DNA from: a virus
Direction: 5' to 3' (one strand)
Length of the DNA stretch: 16,094 bases
Virus genome (UHGV): UHGV-0121456
Shown here: positions 1,507 through 15,877 of the stretch, piece by piece
Position numbering within the stretch: the first letter of the stretch is position 1
Layout of the letters: the number at the start of each line of letters is the position of its first letter
Position numbers and translations under genes: made by a program
Notes under the pieces: model-generated
The model's database searches: none
The model's input: the letters and a program-made list of their open reading frames with translations, nothing else
What the model was told of the DNA's origin: nothing

Positions 1507-1550
1507 GCAGCAACAAAGTTAAACTCTATGTTGCTGCCTTAATTTTATTA
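1507..1550 (+). terminator. Candidate intrinsic terminator for the moron transcript
   Basis: Perfect 9 bp stem gcagcaaca/tgttgctgc (1507-1515/1529-1537) with a 13 nt loop, followed by cttaattttatta. It starts 10 bp after the moron stop. Confidence 0.45.
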
Positions 1551-1910
1551 CTCCATTTCTAAACGAATATCCAGCATCGAGAGACAACCATCTATAAACC
1601 CTTCAGCCAACTGTATCTCTATACGTATCAATTTCTCATCTTTTTTGTATGCTTTTGCTATCTTCCTTTTCGAGATGCCATACAGGTAATGAGCCACAAT
1701 CAGAGAGTGCTCATACGGTTTTCTCTTCTTAAGAAGAGCAAGACAACCTTCAATAATTAATGCATCACTATCTGAACAAGCCTGACGTGTTTTGCTTGTA
1801 TAGGGAAGAAGCCCTTTAAACCCAGCAGCTATAGGAGAATAGTCTACTCCAGAACTATCACTCGCCGCCCATGCTCCCCAACGCTCCAGAACCATCTGAA
1901 TATCACGCAT
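1548..1910 (-). CDS. Q: Late-gene antiterminator Q (Q21/QuuD-like family)
   Basis: Translation MRDIQMVLERWGAWAASDSSGVDYSPIAAGFKGLL... matches my recollection of E. coli QuuD. Probable start is ATG at 1910..1908 with GGAG 7 nt upstream; the ORF-track start at 1913 is a TTG. It sits immediately upstream of the lysis region. Confidence 0.8.
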   Translation of the reverse strand: MRDIQMVLERWGAWAASDSSGVDYSPIAAGFKGLLPYTSKTRQACSDSDALIIEGCLALLKKRKPYEHSLIVAHYLYGISKRKIAKAYKKDEKLIRIEIQLAEGFIDGCLSMLDIRLEME

Positions 1911-1927
1911 CAACTTTCTCCACCAAA

Positions 1928-3753: not shown

Positions 3754-4143
3754 TCAGGCGGCTGCACCCGCCGGTTTCTCGTACTTACTGATAGTGATCT
3801 CGACCTTCCCTTCCGGGATAACCGGTCCCCACTCCACCAGCATTCTTTTCACCTGACTGTCGTCTTCCCACACACCCGCGTGGGTCAGGGCGTCAAACAG
3901 CGCCTTGTTATAGTTGTCCAGATCGCGGATCCGGTTATCCGGAGGAAACAACACGATCTCCACTGAAGCAGGTGCCGACGTTGGTTTCGGCAGACGACGT
4001 AACTGCTCAACTATTGCTGCACACGCCGCGCTCTGGAATTTGCGCCCCGCCGCGCTTATCAGGCTCTTACCTGCAAACGCCCCTTTGTTGGGGTGTCGCC
4101 AGTACGAGTTCACGCTGGGCGGGAAAGGCAGGATCAGCTTCAT
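3754..4143 (-). CDS. rusA: RusA-family Holliday junction resolvase
   Basis: 129 aa with the RusA signature LPFPPSVNSYWR ... RIRDLDNYNKALFDALTHAGVWEDDSQV. ATGA overlap with the upstream gene. Confidence 0.85.
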   Translation of the reverse strand: MKLILPFPPSVNSYWRHPNKGAFAGKSLISAAGRKFQSAACAAIVEQLRRLPKPTSAPASVEIVLFPPDNRIRDLDNYNKALFDALTHAGVWEDDSQVKRMLVEWGPVIPEGKVEITISKYEKPAGAAA

Positions 4144-4466
4144 ACTTTCAGGCCCCTCTCATGTAACCAGTGGGCTGCACGCAGCCTGCCGTTTTCCTCA
4201 CCGGCAAGCAGTGCGCGGATAATCCCGACCGCCTCGCTGTCGTCGTCCTTCACCGCGGTATGAAGCGTTATCCCCCGGGCCACGCCACGCTTTATCGTGA
4301 TGACGCCTTTTTTCTCCAGTGCGCGAAGATGCTCTACCGCTGCATTCACTGAACGATATCCCAGCATGGTTGCCACCTCCTGATTGGTTGGCGGGAAGCC
4401 ACGTTCTTTCTGGTAAGAAATCAGCATATCCAGCACCTGCTGCTGGCATTGAGTTAACATCGTCAT
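4140..4466 (-). CDS. LexA-like N-terminal DNA-binding domain protein lacking the S24 peptidase domain
   Basis: 108 aa. LTQCQQQVLDMLISYQKERGFPPTNQEVATMLGYRSVNAAVEHLRALEKKGVITIKRGVARGITL resembles the LexA winged-helix domain. No Ser/Lys peptidase part. ATGA overlaps at both ends. Confidence 0.65.
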   Translation of the reverse strand: MTMLTQCQQQVLDMLISYQKERGFPPTNQEVATMLGYRSVNAAVEHLRALEKKGVITIKRGVARGITLHTAVKDDDSEAVGIIRALLAGEENGRLRAAHWLHERGLKV

Positions 4467-5116
4467 GCCGTCATCTCCCTGACCAGTTTTTCCGCCTGCT
4501 GGCGAACCTGCGCCAGAAAGGCCTCACCACATGCCTCAAGTTCATCGCGCCCGATGTAGCTGATTGCCGGTCCCTTCCAGGTCTTGTCGAAAACAGCAAT
4601 AGCACCAGCGAAGAAAGCGCCTGTCGGCACCTGCTTCTCATCCTTCGGGATAAACCAGGCAGGCAGTTCAAAACCAATACGCCCGCGAATAAAAGCAATA
4701 TGGTCTGCGTCTTCCGGCCACCATACTTCGCTGGTGGCAGCTTTGATCAGGAAAACATAGCGCCCGCCTTTATCACGCATGGCACTGGCATGCTTCATGA
4801 TGTAACGCATGCCGGTGATGTATTGCCCCTCATGCTGACTGGCGCGGCTGTATGGGGGATTACCAAAGGCAGCACCTTTAAGCTCCGCAAGACGTTCTGA
4901 CCAGTCATGCGCCAGCGCGTTGTCTTCCGCCGTGTAATACGCGGCACATTTGGCGTTATCACCGTCAGTGAACAGATCCAGAACAAACGGACCAAACAGG
5001 GTGTTAATTCCCCAGAAAATGTTATCTGGCGTGCGCCACTGATCGCCCACTTCCTTCAGTTCATGGGCTGGTTTGTTCCGCAGTTCCACCAGTGCCTGAC
5101 AATATTTATTACTCAT
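4463..5116 (-). CDS. Phage N6-adenine DNA methyltransferase (Dam-like, Phage_N6A_met type)
   Basis: FGNPPYS catalytic motif. Probable start is ATG at 5116..5114 (MSNKYCQ...) with GGGGG Shine-Dalgarno and TAATG overlap with the upstream gene; the ORF-track start at 5149 is an in-frame GTG inside the upstream gene. Confidence 0.8.
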   Translation of the reverse strand: MSNKYCQALVELRNKPAHELKEVGDQWRTPDNIFWGINTLFGPFVLDLFTDGDNAKCAAYYTAEDNALAHDWSERLAELKGAAFGNPPYSRASQHEGQYITGMRYIMKHASAMRDKGGRYVFLIKAATSEVWWPEDADHIAFIRGRIGFELPAWFIPKDEKQVPTGAFFAGAIAVFDKTWKGPAISYIGRDELEACGEAFLAQVRQQAEKLVREMTA

Positions 5117-5606: not shown

Positions 5607-6548
5607 TCACCCCCTGAATCCTGCCGGGATCTGGCTGTAGTCCACGTTGTCGTAACTGGCTTTGAAGTACGGGTCTTCGCGTTTTTCGGTGTACGTGCTG
5701 ACGGACGGCGATAAGCGCAGGGAAAGCTCATCCCATTTTTCCCGCAGCTTCGACGGGCTGAGCACGTTACGGCACCAGAACGGATCGCGGCTGACGCGGC
5801 TGTACATCTCGCAGATTTGTTTGTGAGTACGACCATCCTGCACACACATCAGGCGAATTTCGTTTGCCCAGGCTGTCCAGTTCGGTTCTTTGGGACGAAC
5901 CACCTCGCCGTCACATTCGGCGGCCTGCTCGTACAGGGCGATGATTTTTTTCCAGAGCCACTGTGCGCAGGTCAAATCATCCTGCGTTCCCCACTGGCGC
6001 TTTTTAGGGCTGAATACAACCGCATCAGGATGGCGAGTTAAAAAATCCTGTTCATCCGTCTGCGTGTCCGGTTGCGAAGCGTCCGGACGAGAAGGTTTTT
6101 TATCTGACGGATCATGTTTTGATTTTACTGACGGATCCCCGCCAGATTCTGACGGGTGAAAACCCGCTTTTTTGCCAGATTTCGACGCATCAAATTTTGA
6201 CGGGTCAGATTTTGATGCGTCAGATTTTGACGGGTCAGAATCTGACAGTTGAGAAAATGCCGCTGCCTGAAGCTTCGCAACGTTAAGCTGATAAACATTC
6301 GACGCATTGCGGTTACCCTGGCGACGCGCCTTACGCGTTAACCAGCCTTCTGCTTCCAGCCGTGCGATAGCCGTTCTGACGGTACTCATCCCCGCGCCAA
6401 TCTGACGGGCAATGGTTTCAATTGATGGCCAGCACACACCTTCGTCATTACTGAAATCAGCCAGGCGGGCCATAATTGCCACGCTGGATAATTTCATGCC
6501 TGACGCTGCGCAACCATCCCATACATAGCCGGTTAATTTAGTGCTCAT
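5607..6548 (-). CDS. Replication initiation protein (lambda O-like organiser): N-terminal helix-turn-helix, repeat-encoded linker, C-terminal domain
   Basis: N-terminus [70 protein letters not shown] is a winged-helix replication-initiator type. Internal SDPSKSDASKSDPSKFDASKSG repeats are encoded by DNA iterons. Position is cro-proximal. Confidence 0.7.
   Translation of the reverse strand: MSTKLTGYVWDGCAASGMKLSSVAIMARLADFSNDEGVCWPSIETIARQIGAGMSTVRTAIARLEAEGWLTRKARRQGNRNASNVYQLNVAKLQAAAFSQLSDSDPSKSDASKSDPSKFDASKSGKKAGFHPSESGGDPSVKSKHDPSDKKPSRPDASQPDTQTDEQDFLTRHPDAVVFSPKKRQWGTQDDLTCAQWLWKKIIALYEQAAECDGEVVRPKEPNWTAWANEIRLMCVQDGRTHKQICEMYSRVSRDPFWCRNVLSPSKLREKWDELSLRLSPSVSTYTEKREDPYFKASYDNVDYSQIPAGFRG
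6145..6253. repeat. Iterons (about 15 bp tandem repeats, ATTTTGACGGGTCAG-like): candidate replication origin inside the initiator gene
   Basis: Units at 6194-6208, 6209-6223 and 6224-6238, with degenerate copies at about 6145-6161, 6176-6193 and 6239-6253. A moderately AT-rich stretch lies at 6085-6125. Confidence 0.6.
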
Positions 6549-7688: not shown

Positions 7689-7778
7689 ACAATATGTACC
7701 TCCGGTGTACATATTACATGATTGAAATGAACCTTCAAGATACTTGTACCTTAACGGTACAAGGGTTTTAATTTCGTT
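7689..7778. promoter_or_regulatory. OR-like immunity region: two palindromic operators (7692-7714 ATATGTAC-N7-GTACATAT; 7743-7763 CTTGTACC-N5-GGTACAAG) overlapping divergent promoters
   Basis: Perfect 8 bp inverted repeats sharing TGTAC-N7-GTACA. Candidate pR on the minus strand: -35 TTGAAG (7738..7733), 16 nt spacer, -10 TAATAT (7716..7711). Candidate pRM on the plus strand: -10 TTTAAT (7767-7772) about 7 nt before the cI ATG, which would make cI mRNA leaderless. Confidence 0.55.
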
Positions 7779-8453
7779 ATGAAAACAATCCATGACATCC
7801 GGCGGTCTAACGCCAGAAAACTGAGAGATGGTGTTGGCGGGAATTCTTCCTTTGCCACTATGATTGATCGCGAGCCAACCCAGACCAGCAGGTTTATGGG
7901 AGATGGTGCTACTAAAAATATCGGTGACAGCATGGCACGACACATCGAAAAATGTTTCGACCTGCCTGTCGGATGGCTCGATCAAGAACACCAGACAACG
8001 AACATCACAAAAAAACCTGATGTTTCAATCACTAATAAACAAATCACATTAGTCCCTGTCATATCATGGGTACAGGCCGGAGCATGGAAAGAAGTTGGAT
8101 ATTCTGAGGTTGATTTGAGCACAGCAGAAACGTATCCCTGCCCTGTACCCTGTGGGGAAATGACTTATATCTTGCGGGTGATAGGTGATTCAATGATTGA
8201 TGAGTACCGCCCGGGAGACATGATTTTTGTCGATCCTGAAGTACCTGCCTGCCACGGTGACGACGTTATTGCATTGATGCACGATACAGGCGAAACCACC
8301 TTCAAAAGGTTGATAGAAGATGGGACACAGCGTTATCTCAAAGCGTTAAACCCAAACTGGCCTGAGCCTTACATTAAGATCAACGGTAATTGCTCTATAA
8401 TTGGTACAGTGATTTTCTCAGGAAAACCAAGAAGATACAAAATCAAAGCCTAA
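7779..8453 (+). CDS. cI: CI-type prophage repressor (helix-turn-helix plus S24 LexA-like autopeptidase domain)
   Basis: 224 aa. C-terminal GDSMIDEYRPGDMIFVD ... TFKRL holds the Ser/Lys dyad. Divergent from cro across the operator region. No strong Shine-Dalgarno. Confidence 0.85.
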   Translation: MKTIHDIRRSNARKLRDGVGGNSSFATMIDREPTQTSRFMGDGATKNIGDSMARHIEKCFDLPVGWLDQEHQTTNITKKPDVSITNKQITLVPVISWVQAGAWKEVGYSEVDLSTAETYPCPVPCGEMTYILRVIGDSMIDEYRPGDMIFVDPEVPACHGDDVIALMHDTGETTFKRLIEDGTQRYLKALNPNWPEPYIKINGNCSIIGTVIFSGKPRRYKIKA

Positions 8454-12988: not shown

Positions 12989-14215
12989 ATGATTGATAAT
13001 GAAGTTAAAATTTTTGCAAAAGAAAAAGAAAAAATGCTGTGCAACAAACTTTCTTTTTACAGGGAGCATGCTCAATCGAGTGAAGATACAAGAAAAAGAA
13101 ACGAATTTGAACGAGACTATGCGCGTATTCTTTATTCCTCTTCGTTCCGCCGGTTACAGGGGAAAATGCAGCTCTTTGAAGTCGATCCTCAAAAATTTAA
13201 CCGTAATAGACTGACTCATAGCCTAGAAGTTGCCCAGATAGCCCGAAGCATCGCATCCGAACTAGAACTTGAACATCCTGTTGTAGCAGAACTGGCTGCA
13301 CTTGCTCACGATATTGGCAACCCTCCGTTTGGTCATTCCGGTGAAAAAAAGCTAAACGATATTGCTAATGATTTCGGCGGCTACGAAGGCAATGCACAGG
13401 CACTTAGAATACTCAGAAGTCTCGAGATAAAGCATCCAAATTGCCCCGGTCTCAACCTTACCCACCGTGCCATTCTCTCCGTCGTTAAATATCCTTATAA
13501 AAAGGAAAACGGCAGAAAAAAATATCTTTATAATGATGACTATAAATACTACACAGAATTGGTAAATAGATATGAATTAGATTTGCAGACTGGCGAGAAG
13601 ACCATTGATGCACAGATAATGGATCTGTCAGACGAAATTGCATATGCCGCGCATGACCTTGAAGATGCACTAAGCCGTAGCATGGTCAGTATTGAAGATA
13701 TTTTTTATGAGTTTGGGATATCCAAGTACAAAGACTCAATTGATTTATTAAATACAATCATTGAAAAATCTAAATATACAGCTTCGAGAGCATCAAGACT
13801 CAATTCATCTGAAGAGTTCGCCATAATATTCAGAAAGGAATTGACATCCAATATTGTTAATGCGCTTGTTAATGATATTACTGTTATTCAAAGTGAAAAT
13901 GGATTCAAGCAACTTGGATTTAGCACTACAAAAAATCTGTCTGCAGGCCTTAAAGATATCGTATTTAAAGTCATCATGCGAAAAAGAGATATTAAAAGTT
14001 ATGAGCACAAAGGAAACATTATCATCGAAGATTTATTTAATTTTTATAATTATAGAGATAACATAGAATTCATATCCCCTCAACTGTATAGAACGCTCCC
14101 AAATAAAATAGAGCCTATTTATCAAGAACTTAAAAAACGTGCAATTGTCGACTACATCTCTGGAATGATGGATACATTTGCCATCCGCGAGTGGGAAACG
14201 CATCACAAAAAATAA
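12989..14215 (+). CDS. dGTPase-family HD-domain deoxynucleoside triphosphate triphosphohydrolase (Dgt-like); candidate nucleotide-depletion defence gene
   Basis: 408 aa. Motifs RLTHSLEVAQIARSIA, HDIGNPPFGHSGE, YEGNAQALRIL, DLSDEIAYAAHDLEDAL, VDYISGMMDTFAIREW match E. coli Dgt signatures. ATG at 12989 with GAGAGG Shine-Dalgarno. Sits in a strongly AT-rich island between the xis-like gene and the integrase. Confidence 0.85.
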   Translation: MIDNEVKIFAKEKEKMLCNKLSFYREHAQSSEDTRKRNEFERDYARILYSSSFRRLQGKMQLFEVDPQKFNRNRLTHSLEVAQIARSIASELELEHPVVAELAALAHDIGNPPFGHSGEKKLNDIANDFGGYEGNAQALRILRSLEIKHPNCPGLNLTHRAILSVVKYPYKKENGRKKYLYNDDYKYYTELVNRYELDLQTGEKTIDAQIMDLSDEIAYAAHDLEDALSRSMVSIEDIFYEFGISKYKDSIDLLNTIIEKSKYTASRASRLNSSEEFAIIFRKELTSNIVNALVNDITVIQSENGFKQLGFSTTKNLSAGLKDIVFKVIMRKRDIKSYEHKGNIIIEDLFNFYNYRDNIEFISPQLYRTLPNKIEPIYQELKKRAIVDYISGMMDTFAIREWETHHKK

Positions 14216-14586: not shown

Positions 14587-15810
14587 TCAACTGGAATCTG
14601 AACTAGGACAAGTAACGAGCGATTCAACCCTCTCCCACCATACCTGGTAGGCTTTACGCTGTTCTTCTAGATAATCGCTCTTGTCATAAACCTGCCATAC
14701 CCCTGGCAGCTTATGACCAAGCATAATTTCTGCAATATGAGGCGCAGTAAGATCAGAAAAGTTTGTTCGTGCTGTTCGCCTCAAATCATGAAGAGACCAA
14801 TGAGGGAATTGATACCCCAAACGTCGCCATGCGAACTGCATTAAATTGTAAGGCAGCGACTGCAATGATGTCCGACCAACTGGCTCCCTGCTTCCTTCCT
14901 TAGTAAAAAGCATATCGGAACCGTTGTTCATAGAGATAACGTATTTTATAAGCTCTTCAACCGGTTCAATAATGGGCCGCTTTAGTGGTTCGCCTGTTAT
15001 CTCCCCTGTCTTATGTCGTTCTGGCGGTACAGTCCATACCTTATTAATGAAATCAAAATCGTCCACCCTGGCGGTAATTAGCTCTGAACTACGGCAGCCA
15101 AAATGCAGCAATAGTTTAATGAAGGCCCGGTATTTAGGAACCATTCGAGAACCATCGATCGCAGCATAAAGGATTTTAATTTCATCATGTGTCAGAAACC
15201 GTTTCTTCTGACCTTTACGGATATCCATATCTTTACCCGTGATATCCGACAGCGGGCGAGTTTCAATGAGCTTTCTCTTATACGCCCAGACATGGGCCTG
15301 CTTTGCGTTAATTAGTAATCGGTCTGCTATTGCTGGAGCCTTAGTGCTAAGAGGCTCCAGGACTTCTAACCAATCATGCAATGTAGCTGCATCGTGAGGG
15401 ATATTCCCGATTTTAGAGAACAGGTGCAACTCAAACGAGCGGAGTATCTGTTCAGAACCCTTTTTATTTTTTACACAATATGCTTCATACCAGGCACGGA
15501 TCACAGACTCTACCGTCATGGCTTCAGTAGCTTTTCGTTTTTCAGCCTGCTTGACCAATCGTGGATTACGGTTTGACTCGAGTTCACCACGGAGACGGAT
15601 AACTTCTTCTCTGGCCTCTTTTAATCCAGTTGCCGGGTAAGTTCCGATATCAAGACGCTCACCTTTCCCTGCCCATTGATAACGATATTGGAACACTACG
15701 CGACCTTTCGGTGATACTCTGACAGACAGACCATCACGATCGGATTTAACCAAAACCTTATCACGTTCCTTTCCAACGACTGAACGCAACCACGCATCAG
15801 ACAGCGCCAT
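14587..15810 (-). CDS. int: Tyrosine-type site-specific integrase (P4-like, with N-terminal arm-binding DUF4102-like domain)
   Basis: 407 aa. N-terminus MALSDAWLRSVVGKERDKVLVKSDRDGLSVRVSPKG...YRYQWAGKGERLDIGTYP. C-terminal catalytic signatures HDLRRTART and a terminal Tyr region. AGGTGA Shine-Dalgarno before ATG at 15810. Confidence 0.9.
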   Translation of the reverse strand: MALSDAWLRSVVGKERDKVLVKSDRDGLSVRVSPKGRVVFQYRYQWAGKGERLDIGTYPATGLKEAREEVIRLRGELESNRNPRLVKQAEKRKATEAMTVESVIRAWYEAYCVKNKKGSEQILRSFELHLFSKIGNIPHDAATLHDWLEVLEPLSTKAPAIADRLLINAKQAHVWAYKRKLIETRPLSDITGKDMDIRKGQKKRFLTHDEIKILYAAIDGSRMVPKYRAFIKLLLHFGCRSSELITARVDDFDFINKVWTVPPERHKTGEITGEPLKRPIIEPVEELIKYVISMNNGSDMLFTKEGSREPVGRTSLQSLPYNLMQFAWRRLGYQFPHWSLHDLRRTARTNFSDLTAPHIAEIMLGHKLPGVWQVYDKSDYLEEQRKAYQVWWERVESLVTCPSSDSS

Positions 15811-15818
15811 TACTCACC

Positions 15819-15877
15819 TTGTACAAATCGCAAAACACCTCTGCTGCTTTGTACATTATGTACAAGCATATGTACAG
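15819..15877. promoter_or_regulatory. Cluster of four TGTACA hexamers upstream of int (15820-15825, 15850-15855, 15859-15864, 15871-15876), including the palindrome TTGTACAttaTGTACAA
   Basis: Same TGTAC core as the OR/OL operators. Lies in the int promoter and att-proximal arm region, which is AT-rich. Confidence 0.35.

Follow-up and report, generated by a model that had tools for sequence, protein, structure and literature searches.

The window analysed here is a 16,094-nucleotide stretch of the viral genome UHGV-0121456, and our subject is a short minus-strand gene at positions 4140–4466, whose 108-residue product resembles the DNA-binding head of the SOS regulator LexA. An earlier reading of the sequence (the original prediction) had described this product as a LexA N-terminal winged-helix domain that lacks the S24 autopeptidase domain and that would therefore escape cleavage after RecA activation. 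The gene and its parts are as follows.

4140–4466, minus strand: gene for a protein with a LexA DNA-binding domain only, 108 codons and a TGA stop (open reading frame (ORF) listing, Pfam, PHROG 362, RefSeq name)
4260–4466, minus strand: winged helix-turn-helix, residues 1–69, homologous to LexA residues 1–69 (AlphaFold2, Foldseek match 3jso, phmmer match 1lea)
4311–4352, minus strand: recognition helix SVNAAVEHLRALEK, residues 39–52, which keeps S39, N41, A42 and E45 and has V in place of E44
4143–4259, minus strand: linker and two-helix C-terminal tail (helices 75–88 and 91–103), residues 70–108, in place of an S24 domain (AlphaFold2)

The whole Pfam model LexA_DNA_bind (PF01726) is matched by residues 1–65 (E = 4.5e-19; score 68.4 bits, cut-off 23.7), and no Pfam match to Peptidase_S24 (PF00717) was found in the 108-residue protein. 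The C-terminal S24 peptidase/dimerisation domain, which holds Ser119 and Lys156 in LexA, is missing from a chain that stops at residue 108. Consistent with this, the NCBIfam lexA equivalog TIGR00498 is matched at model positions 1–91 out of 203 only, with a score of 69.5 that lies under the cut-off of 110.95. PHROG 362, a family of LexA heads without S24, is matched over its full length (residues 1–108 against profile positions 1–106 of 106, E = 3.1e-58). The family is called “transcriptional repressor”, which is an annotation name for a putative activity, and the RefSeq/GenBank name of the gene is “LexA family transcriptional regulator”. PADLOC gave no meaningful defence-system match for the protein. 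Since the S24 autopeptidase is absent, no self-cleavage of the protein can follow RecA activation, as had been proposed.

Folding of the single sequence with AlphaFold2 gave a poor model (predicted local distance difference test (pLDDT) score of 57), and the model used here was made with an alignment of 22 sequences (pLDDT 84). As can be seen from this model, helices at residues 6–22, 28–35 and 40–52 are followed by a beta-wing (strands 56–58 and 66–68) and by two extra helices at residues 75–88 and 91–103; block-mean pLDDT values are ~80–91 across residues 1–70. The top Foldseek match of the model is the E. coli LexA-DNA complex 3jso (root-mean-square deviation (rmsd) of 1.0 Å over 68 residues, 50% identity). 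Among solved structures, phmmer ranks 1lea, the DNA-binding domain of E. coli LexA, first by sequence (E = 8e-16); residues 1–68 are ~50% identical to this domain. A different winged-helix family, the outcome that would have spoken against the original prediction, is not what was found: E. coli LexA itself is the best structural match. Pfam, TIGR00498, AlphaFold2 and Foldseek thus agree, and the product of ORF 4140–4466 is a genuine LexA winged-helix DNA-binding domain without S24.

The tail of ~35 residues is kept in relatives of 40–65% identity, with the consensus IRALLAGExxARxRAxxWL, in which A97 and L101 are invariant; Foldseek detected no structural match for it in the PDB. The chain extends beyond the position of the LexA cleavage site and ends in GLKV. 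An Ala-Gly dipeptide of the tail, A88-G89, aligns with the cleavage site Ala84-Gly85 of LexA; a catalytic domain in cis is lacking, however, the prediction for this segment is helical, and most members of the family do not have the dipeptide. We considered whether A88-G89 could be a working site for cleavage in trans and rejected this, given the lack of conservation and the predicted helix. Judged by alignment, the dipeptide is a vestige and not a functional site, because it is not conserved in the family.

The main contacts of E. coli LexA with the SOS box are made by S39, N41, A42 and E45, and mutating these residues alters specificity (review of the crystal complex, PMC11442139); model-based studies list S39, N41, A42, E44 and E45 as DNA-contact residues (PMC3091678). 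Aligned pairwise with E. coli LexA, the protein of the window has S39-V40-N41-A42-A43-V44-E45 in its recognition helix; all four main contacts are retained and E44 is lost. The wing, KGVITIKRGVARGITL, is LexA-like. Among the 82 loci of the window clade, SVNAAVEH is uniform, with S39, N41, A42 and E45 invariant; over the whole family, S39 and N41 never vary and A42 hardly does.

The gene forms part of a series of minus-strand genes that faces a divergent repressor gene. The neighbouring features are listed below.

7779–8453, plus strand: cI-type (YmfK-like) repressor with an S24 peptidase, divergent (PF00717, E = 1.5e-26; RefSeq “ymfK, LexA family protein”)
4463–5116, minus strand: Dam, phage N6-adenine DNA methyltransferase, the upstream neighbour (PF05869, E = 1e-45; TIGR01712, E = 1.7e-76)
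4463–4466, minus strand: ATGA overlap of the Dam stop and the start of the LexA-like gene (read in the sequence)
4140–4143, minus strand: ATGA overlap of the stop of the LexA-like gene and the RusA start (read in the sequence)
3754–4143, minus strand: RusA Holliday-junction resolvase, the downstream neighbour (PF05866, E = 7e-15)
1548–1913, minus strand: Q antiterminator, end of the operon that holds the LexA-like gene (PF06530, E = 1.9e-52)

The limits of Dam are those of the RefSeq coding sequence of an identical prophage; a longer, GTG-started ORF reaches 5149. The order on the minus strand is replication initiator (5607–6548), PerC/YfdN, Dam, LexA-like gene, RusA, KilA-N, DUF968 and Q (1548–1913). 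No promoter-like site was predicted on this strand from ~7450 to 3753 and no terminator-like site from 7577 to 2499, which fits a single long early operon. The original prediction had placed the gene in a delayed-early operon, coupled by overlaps between Dam and RusA, and had assigned an intact S24 domain to the cI repressor at 7779–8453; both overlaps are there, and the repressor does match Peptidase_S24. From its domain content, this repressor is the cleavable switch, the loss of which would turn the operon on. A prophage of E. coli 13P477T, located between prfC and yjjG, matches the window, and its LexA-like gene is 100% identical.

Four proteins in our collection (P0019, P0092, P0098 and P0120) are predicted fusions of Dam (PF05869) and LexA_DNA_bind; they are most likely frameshifts or miscalls at the ATGA junction. 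Elsewhere in the window, a 15-bp unit repeated 4.3 times (CAGATTTTGACGGGT) at 6176–6239, inside the replication-initiator gene, encodes a repetitive DPSKSDASKS stretch and probably represents origin iterons. An HD-domain protein of 408 residues (12989–14215, plus strand) was assigned by PADLOC to its dGTPase model of anti-phage defence (E = 9e-105) and is named dGTP triphosphohydrolase family in RefSeq; its gene is a moron that adjoins the integrase gene (14587–15810). A 248-residue ORF on the plus (opposite) strand (751–1497), with Q on one side and the lysis genes on the other, matches the candidate defence protein PDC-M68A (E = 7.5e-27) as well as HNH-endonuclease effector models, and is probably another defence moron.

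The 327-bp gene is present at ≥90% identity in 2233 of 5426 complete E. coli genomes (41%), and 51 phage records carry it, including SfII, mEp460 and Stx2a/Stx2c phages (Stx2, Shiga toxin 2); a protein search with the relative P0138 located family members in SfV and cdtI as well. The 57 DNA alleles of the window clade encode 14 protein variants, and the ratio of nonsynonymous to synonymous substitution rates (dN/dS) calculated from them is 0.12 for the whole gene, being lower in the head (0.08) than in the tail (0.20). We therefore conclude that the LexA-like gene is a working gene. Conservation on this scale is well outside what chance would give. What is solid is that the product of the gene, a winged-helix DNA-binding protein, is derived from LexA, conserved and uncleavable, and that it is made only once the switch to lytic growth has occurred.

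An exhaustive profile search retrieved 4431 matches at E < 1e-3, which comprise real LexA proteins and many short head-only proteins, and BFVD contains head-only LexA homologues from caudoviruses, tectiviruses and one mycobacteriophage. Several proteins (P0132, P0133, P0144, P0147, P0148 and others) have two tandem LexA_DNA_bind domains without a complete LexA C-terminal region. In effect they resemble pseudo-dimers of the LexA head within one chain, a hint that reading a palindrome takes two heads in head-only proteins.

A scan for CTGT-N8-ACAG boxes, proposed together with the original prediction, found no exact match in the window. With one mismatch allowed, nine matches are present against 5.4 expected, and 26 of 200 shuffled sequences did as well. 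Unlike an autoregulated lexA gene, the LexA-like gene of the window is not preceded by an SOS box of its own. A search of the window's intergenic regions for CTNT-Nx-ANAG variants and perfect palindromes returned only probable cI/Cro operators and terminator-like hairpins. The TGTAC..GTACA palindromes at 7693–7713 and 7743–7763, between cI and cro, are probably the cI/Cro operators; similar TGTACA palindromes lie just upstream of the integrase gene (15849–15876).

Outside the window, at the far end of the matching prophage in 13P477T, there is a dinI-like gene whose promoter is covered by two tandem SOS boxes (locus L220, 8367–8414). A TIR-domain anti-phage reverse transcriptase gene (L220, 9048–10652) adjoins it. 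About half of the window-clade loci have SOS boxes at two recurrent spots (~18 and ~27 of the 82 loci), one inside the coding sequence of the mEp460-type S24 cI and the other at the 5′ end of a late-region DNA methyltransferase gene. Near-consensus boxes were noted in L013 (mEp460; 31970–31989 and 41021–41040), L007 (836–855) and L012 (8739–8758). The modules that bear SOS boxes form a mosaic and show no tie to the LexA-like gene.

Related loci were collected from IMG/VR and from assemblies (218 in all, of which 217 were analysed by script); they are partly redundant, and the counts below do not represent independent events. Two contexts can be distinguished. Class A comprises 186 loci, including the window, and class B comprises the 31 loci of the P0138/P0213 clade, with 47–100% identity to P0138; P0213 used as a query against viral contigs gave no match. 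In class A, the LexA-like gene is embedded in a cI-controlled operon, and an S24-type cI ORF was detected in 170 of the 186 loci. The gene is immediately followed by rusA in 184 loci, and DUF968 lies downstream in 176 (207 of the 217 loci of both classes). The upstream neighbour varies: it may be Dam, a Dcm-like methylase, PerC or a replication gene. No class A locus has an SOS box within 800 nucleotides upstream of the LexA-like gene (0/186).

In class B, the gene lies behind a terminator and a σ70-like promoter (TTGCAx-17-AATAxT) that is overlapped by a near-consensus SOS box, and a box within 800 nucleotides upstream was present in 28 of the 31 loci. The order is SOS box, dinI, a small ORF (phrog_1813), LexA-like gene, phrog_1212, rusA, DUF968 and Q. 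The dinI gene (PF06183, E = 1e-23) was detected in 19 loci, rusA in only 8 (leaving 23 of 31 without a detectable one), and both DUF968 and phrog_1813, the latter with a GTG or TTG start, in all 31. The LexA-like gene would share its transcript with dinI, where present, and with phrog_1813. None of the 31 loci has a detectable S24 repressor, and 17 have a short repressor that consists of a helix-turn-helix only.

In seven class B loci, a UmuD-like gene with a separate SOS box is found just upstream. This gene, phrog_3469 (109 residues), has a near-perfect SOS box in L036 (6837–7206), with equivalents in L027, L033, L034, L037, L040 and L047; it is located directly upstream of the SOS-box dinI operon, and the two together form a small SOS-related gene cluster on the phage. 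In one class B prophage (L010, 3863–5232, minus strand), the gene of a bacterial RNase A-like toxin, together with a second gene that has only a faint match to the immunity-like CdiI_2, is inserted on the opposite strand, a short way upstream of the SOS-box promoter in front of the LexA-like gene.

The best reading of these observations, to which we tentatively assign a probability of about 0.4, is that the protein is an uncleavable LexA surrogate that acts on SOS-type operators. In this reading the gene encodes a small DNA-binding protein descended from a gammaproteobacterial LexA, with the head kept and the S24 domain replaced by the two-helix tail. The gene has no promoter of its own and depends for its translation on the early rightward operon, in which the replication genes lie on one side of it and Q on the other. 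The protein should be made only after the cleavable cI has been destroyed, or during infection, i.e., at the same moment at which activated RecA (RecA*) has depleted the host LexA. The surrogate would then bind operators of the CTGT type (SOS-box-like) and bring LexA-controlled promoters back under repression in spite of the persisting activity of RecA*. Its candidate targets comprise SOS genes of the host, genes with SOS boxes (such as dinI) on its own or co-resident prophages, and the LexA-controlled antirepressors of competitors; in class B, the surrogate may provide negative feedback on the LexA-controlled operon for as long as RecA* persists. The identity of the domain, the lack of S24, the place in the operon, the conservation and the context in relatives are observed; what we infer is the specificity for operators, a dimerisation by way of the wing, the tail or both, a repressing as opposed to an activating role, and the target genes.

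We favour the surrogate because the head is very close to that of E. coli LexA both by sequence and by fold, and because the main contact residues and a LexA-like wing are retained in the window clade. The free N-terminal domain of LexA is reported to retain some SOS-box binding and repression unless ClpXP removes it, and this activity is the reason given for its removal (PMC10584840); a head-only protein that is stable could thus plausibly act as a repressor. The context counts in the same direction, since in both architectures the predicted expression coincides with the disappearance of LexA, since the class B company of the gene (dinI, the UmuD-like gene and the SOS-box promoter) consists of SOS modulators, and since the same prophage in the best-matching genome carries the dinI-like gene with two SOS boxes. 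The purifying selection indicated by the dN/dS of 0.12 is a further reason.

A number of points weigh against a surrogate. The best score in the window of a 20-mer SOS-box matrix, constructed from 20 E. coli SOS boxes, is 11.1, compared with 13.2 for the weakest training box; as the 16-kb window contains no SOS box, any target must lie elsewhere. Position 44 is non-acidic (V, A, F, T, L or Y) in 10 of the 10 tail-bearing sequences examined, whereas 15 of 21 full-length LexA relatives have E. Position 45 is E in only ~64% of unique family sequences, the remainder having A, L, S, D, G or I, and it varies even between close relatives: NAAAEH, NAAVEH and NAAVAH occur within one clade, and the dinI-linked class B subclade has NAVALH. 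Variation of E45 among relatives argues against one fixed LexA-box specificity for the family. One can expect such variability if operators differ between phages, but hardly if all of the proteins were to match an invariant host SOS box. The LexA dimerisation domain is absent, and the tail is at most a putative dimerisation element. No experimental or functional study of the enterobacterial LexA-like protein was found in the searchable literature. The nearest precedent, gp6 of the Bacillus phage GIL01, is a 66-residue protein made of the LexA head only, which recognises a site distinct from the LexA box and works as an activator of the late promoter P3 (PMC6182141); by analogy, the protein studied here might do likewise.

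The main rival explanation, to which we give a somewhat lower probability than to the surrogate, is that a captured LexA head has been re-targeted to a diverged operator of the phage and activates or represses phage genes (late-region or moron genes) without acting directly on the host SOS regulon. Apart from gp6, this possibility draws on the presence of head-only LexA homologues in unrelated phage groups, on the loss of E44 in every tail-bearing sequence examined and on the shifts at positions 44 and 45 between close relatives, which are as expected for changing specificities and which, going by the alignments, seem to favour re-targeting for at least part of the family. Yet no candidate operator was found among the intergenic palindromes of the window, the gene adjoins no promoter in class A loci, all four main base-contact residues are retained in the window clade, and the class B context points to an SOS circuit. 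Overlapping start and stop codons are commonplace in lambdoid nin-type regions, which takes away from another explanation, namely that the protein is an accessory DNA-binding partner of RusA and DUF968/HNH that, for example, directs or restrains junction resolution on replicating phage DNA. We regard it as improbable. Adjacency and overlap coupling to rusA in 184 of 186 class A loci, down to relatives of ~40–65% identity, and the downstream DUF968 of nearly all loci would agree with such a partnership; however, most class B loci keep the LexA-like gene without a detectable rusA, there is no known link of LexA-type winged helices with resolvases, and synteny within one phage lineage is weak functional evidence. 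Finally, the resemblance to a truncated lexA and the alignment of A88-G89 with the LexA cleavage site could suggest a decaying remnant of a captured lexA with no present function. This is excluded, to within a very small residual chance, by the low dN/dS and by conservation: 57 DNA alleles collapse into 14 protein variants, the ORF is intact in 2233 of 5426 E. coli genomes, the tail is kept in relatives of 40–50% identity from different prophage backgrounds, and the Ala-Gly dipeptide is not conserved.

If the surrogate does bind SOS boxes, a very common prophage gene, carried by 41% of complete E. coli genomes, by Shigella serotype-converting phages and by Stx2 phages, would have the means to override the host DNA-damage response at induction. 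In the strongest form of this proposal, which we consider doubtful, roughly four of every ten complete E. coli genomes, Stx2-phage lysogens among them, would carry a RecA-proof LexA surrogate that shuts the host SOS regulon and LexA-controlled competitors back off once the prophage fires. The competitors shut off would include antirepressors of other prophages, colicins, SOS-induced toxins and defence genes, and in dinI-orfX-lexL operons the protein would be a built-in negative-feedback timer on the expression of a LexA-controlled antirepressor. Such an override could affect SOS mutagenesis, filamentation, release of colicins and toxins, and the cross-induction of prophages that share a cell; the output of Shiga toxin under antibiotics might change as well. 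It would amount to a previously unrecognised layer of SOS control that bears on antibiotic-induced mutagenesis, Shiga-toxin phage induction and prophage competition, and the presence of the gene inside a LexA-controlled dinI/antirepressor-type operon in class B offers a concrete circuit. Should the protein instead recognise its own operator, it would be one more phage regulator and a matter of routine annotation. The family itself is already catalogued in Pfam, as PHROG 362 and under NCBI names, and gp6 is a precedent for a phage-encoded truncated LexA. The conserved tail, the near-obligate position upstream of rusA/DUF968/Q and the family-wide loss of E44 appear to be undescribed in the searchable literature, as does the placement of class B genes inside a Gifsy-like SOS operon.

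Compared with E. coli LexA, the window protein shares the fold of the head (rmsd 1.0 Å, ~50% identity), the start M-x-x-L-T, the residues S39, N41, A42 and E45, and the wing motif RGI. It differs in having no S24 peptidase/dimerisation domain, and hence no RecA*-stimulated self-cleavage, in having V in place of E44, and in its 35-residue two-helix tail where LexA has the hinge and the catalytic domain. It is also prophage-encoded, in a phage early operon, with no SOS box upstream in the window. LexA(1–84) is likewise a head-only LexA; it is a transient degradation intermediate, whereas the window protein is an encoded, conserved product that ends in GLKV. Neher et al. (2003) reportedly found the ClpX signal at the new VAA C-terminus of the LexA cleavage fragment.

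GIL01 gp6 is the only characterised truncated phage LexA homologue, and the likeness to it is that both proteins are phage-encoded LexA DNA-binding domains without a cleavage domain and are found among early genes; the LexA-like protein thus belongs to the same head-only type. Over 66 residues the two are 35% identical. Since gp6 is closer to the LexA of B. thuringiensis (44% identity, PMC6182141) and the window protein to that of E. coli (~50%), we infer separate captures. The proteins differ in that gp6 has 66 residues and no C-terminal tail and that its site and activator role are known, whereas the window protein is known from sequence; the phages differ as well, GIL01 being a tectivirus and the phage studied here a lambdoid siphovirus.

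According to Lemire et al. 2011 (PMC3121763), Gifsy prophages have a dinI-antirepressor-irsA operon that is under the control of LexA. We asked whether irsA could correspond to the LexA-like gene and rejected this, as the third gene of Gifsy-2, the irsA homologue STM1020, encodes a DUF1367 protein with no similarity. There is also no detectable similarity between GftA and phrog_1813, which from its position would be the antirepressor. The window itself, with its cleavable S24 cI and no SOS box, does not have an operon of the Gifsy type. The class B relatives alone do: a terminator, an SOS-box promoter, dinI, a small non-ATG ORF and a third gene follow one another on the way to Q, and class B phages, like Gifsy, have short repressors without S24.

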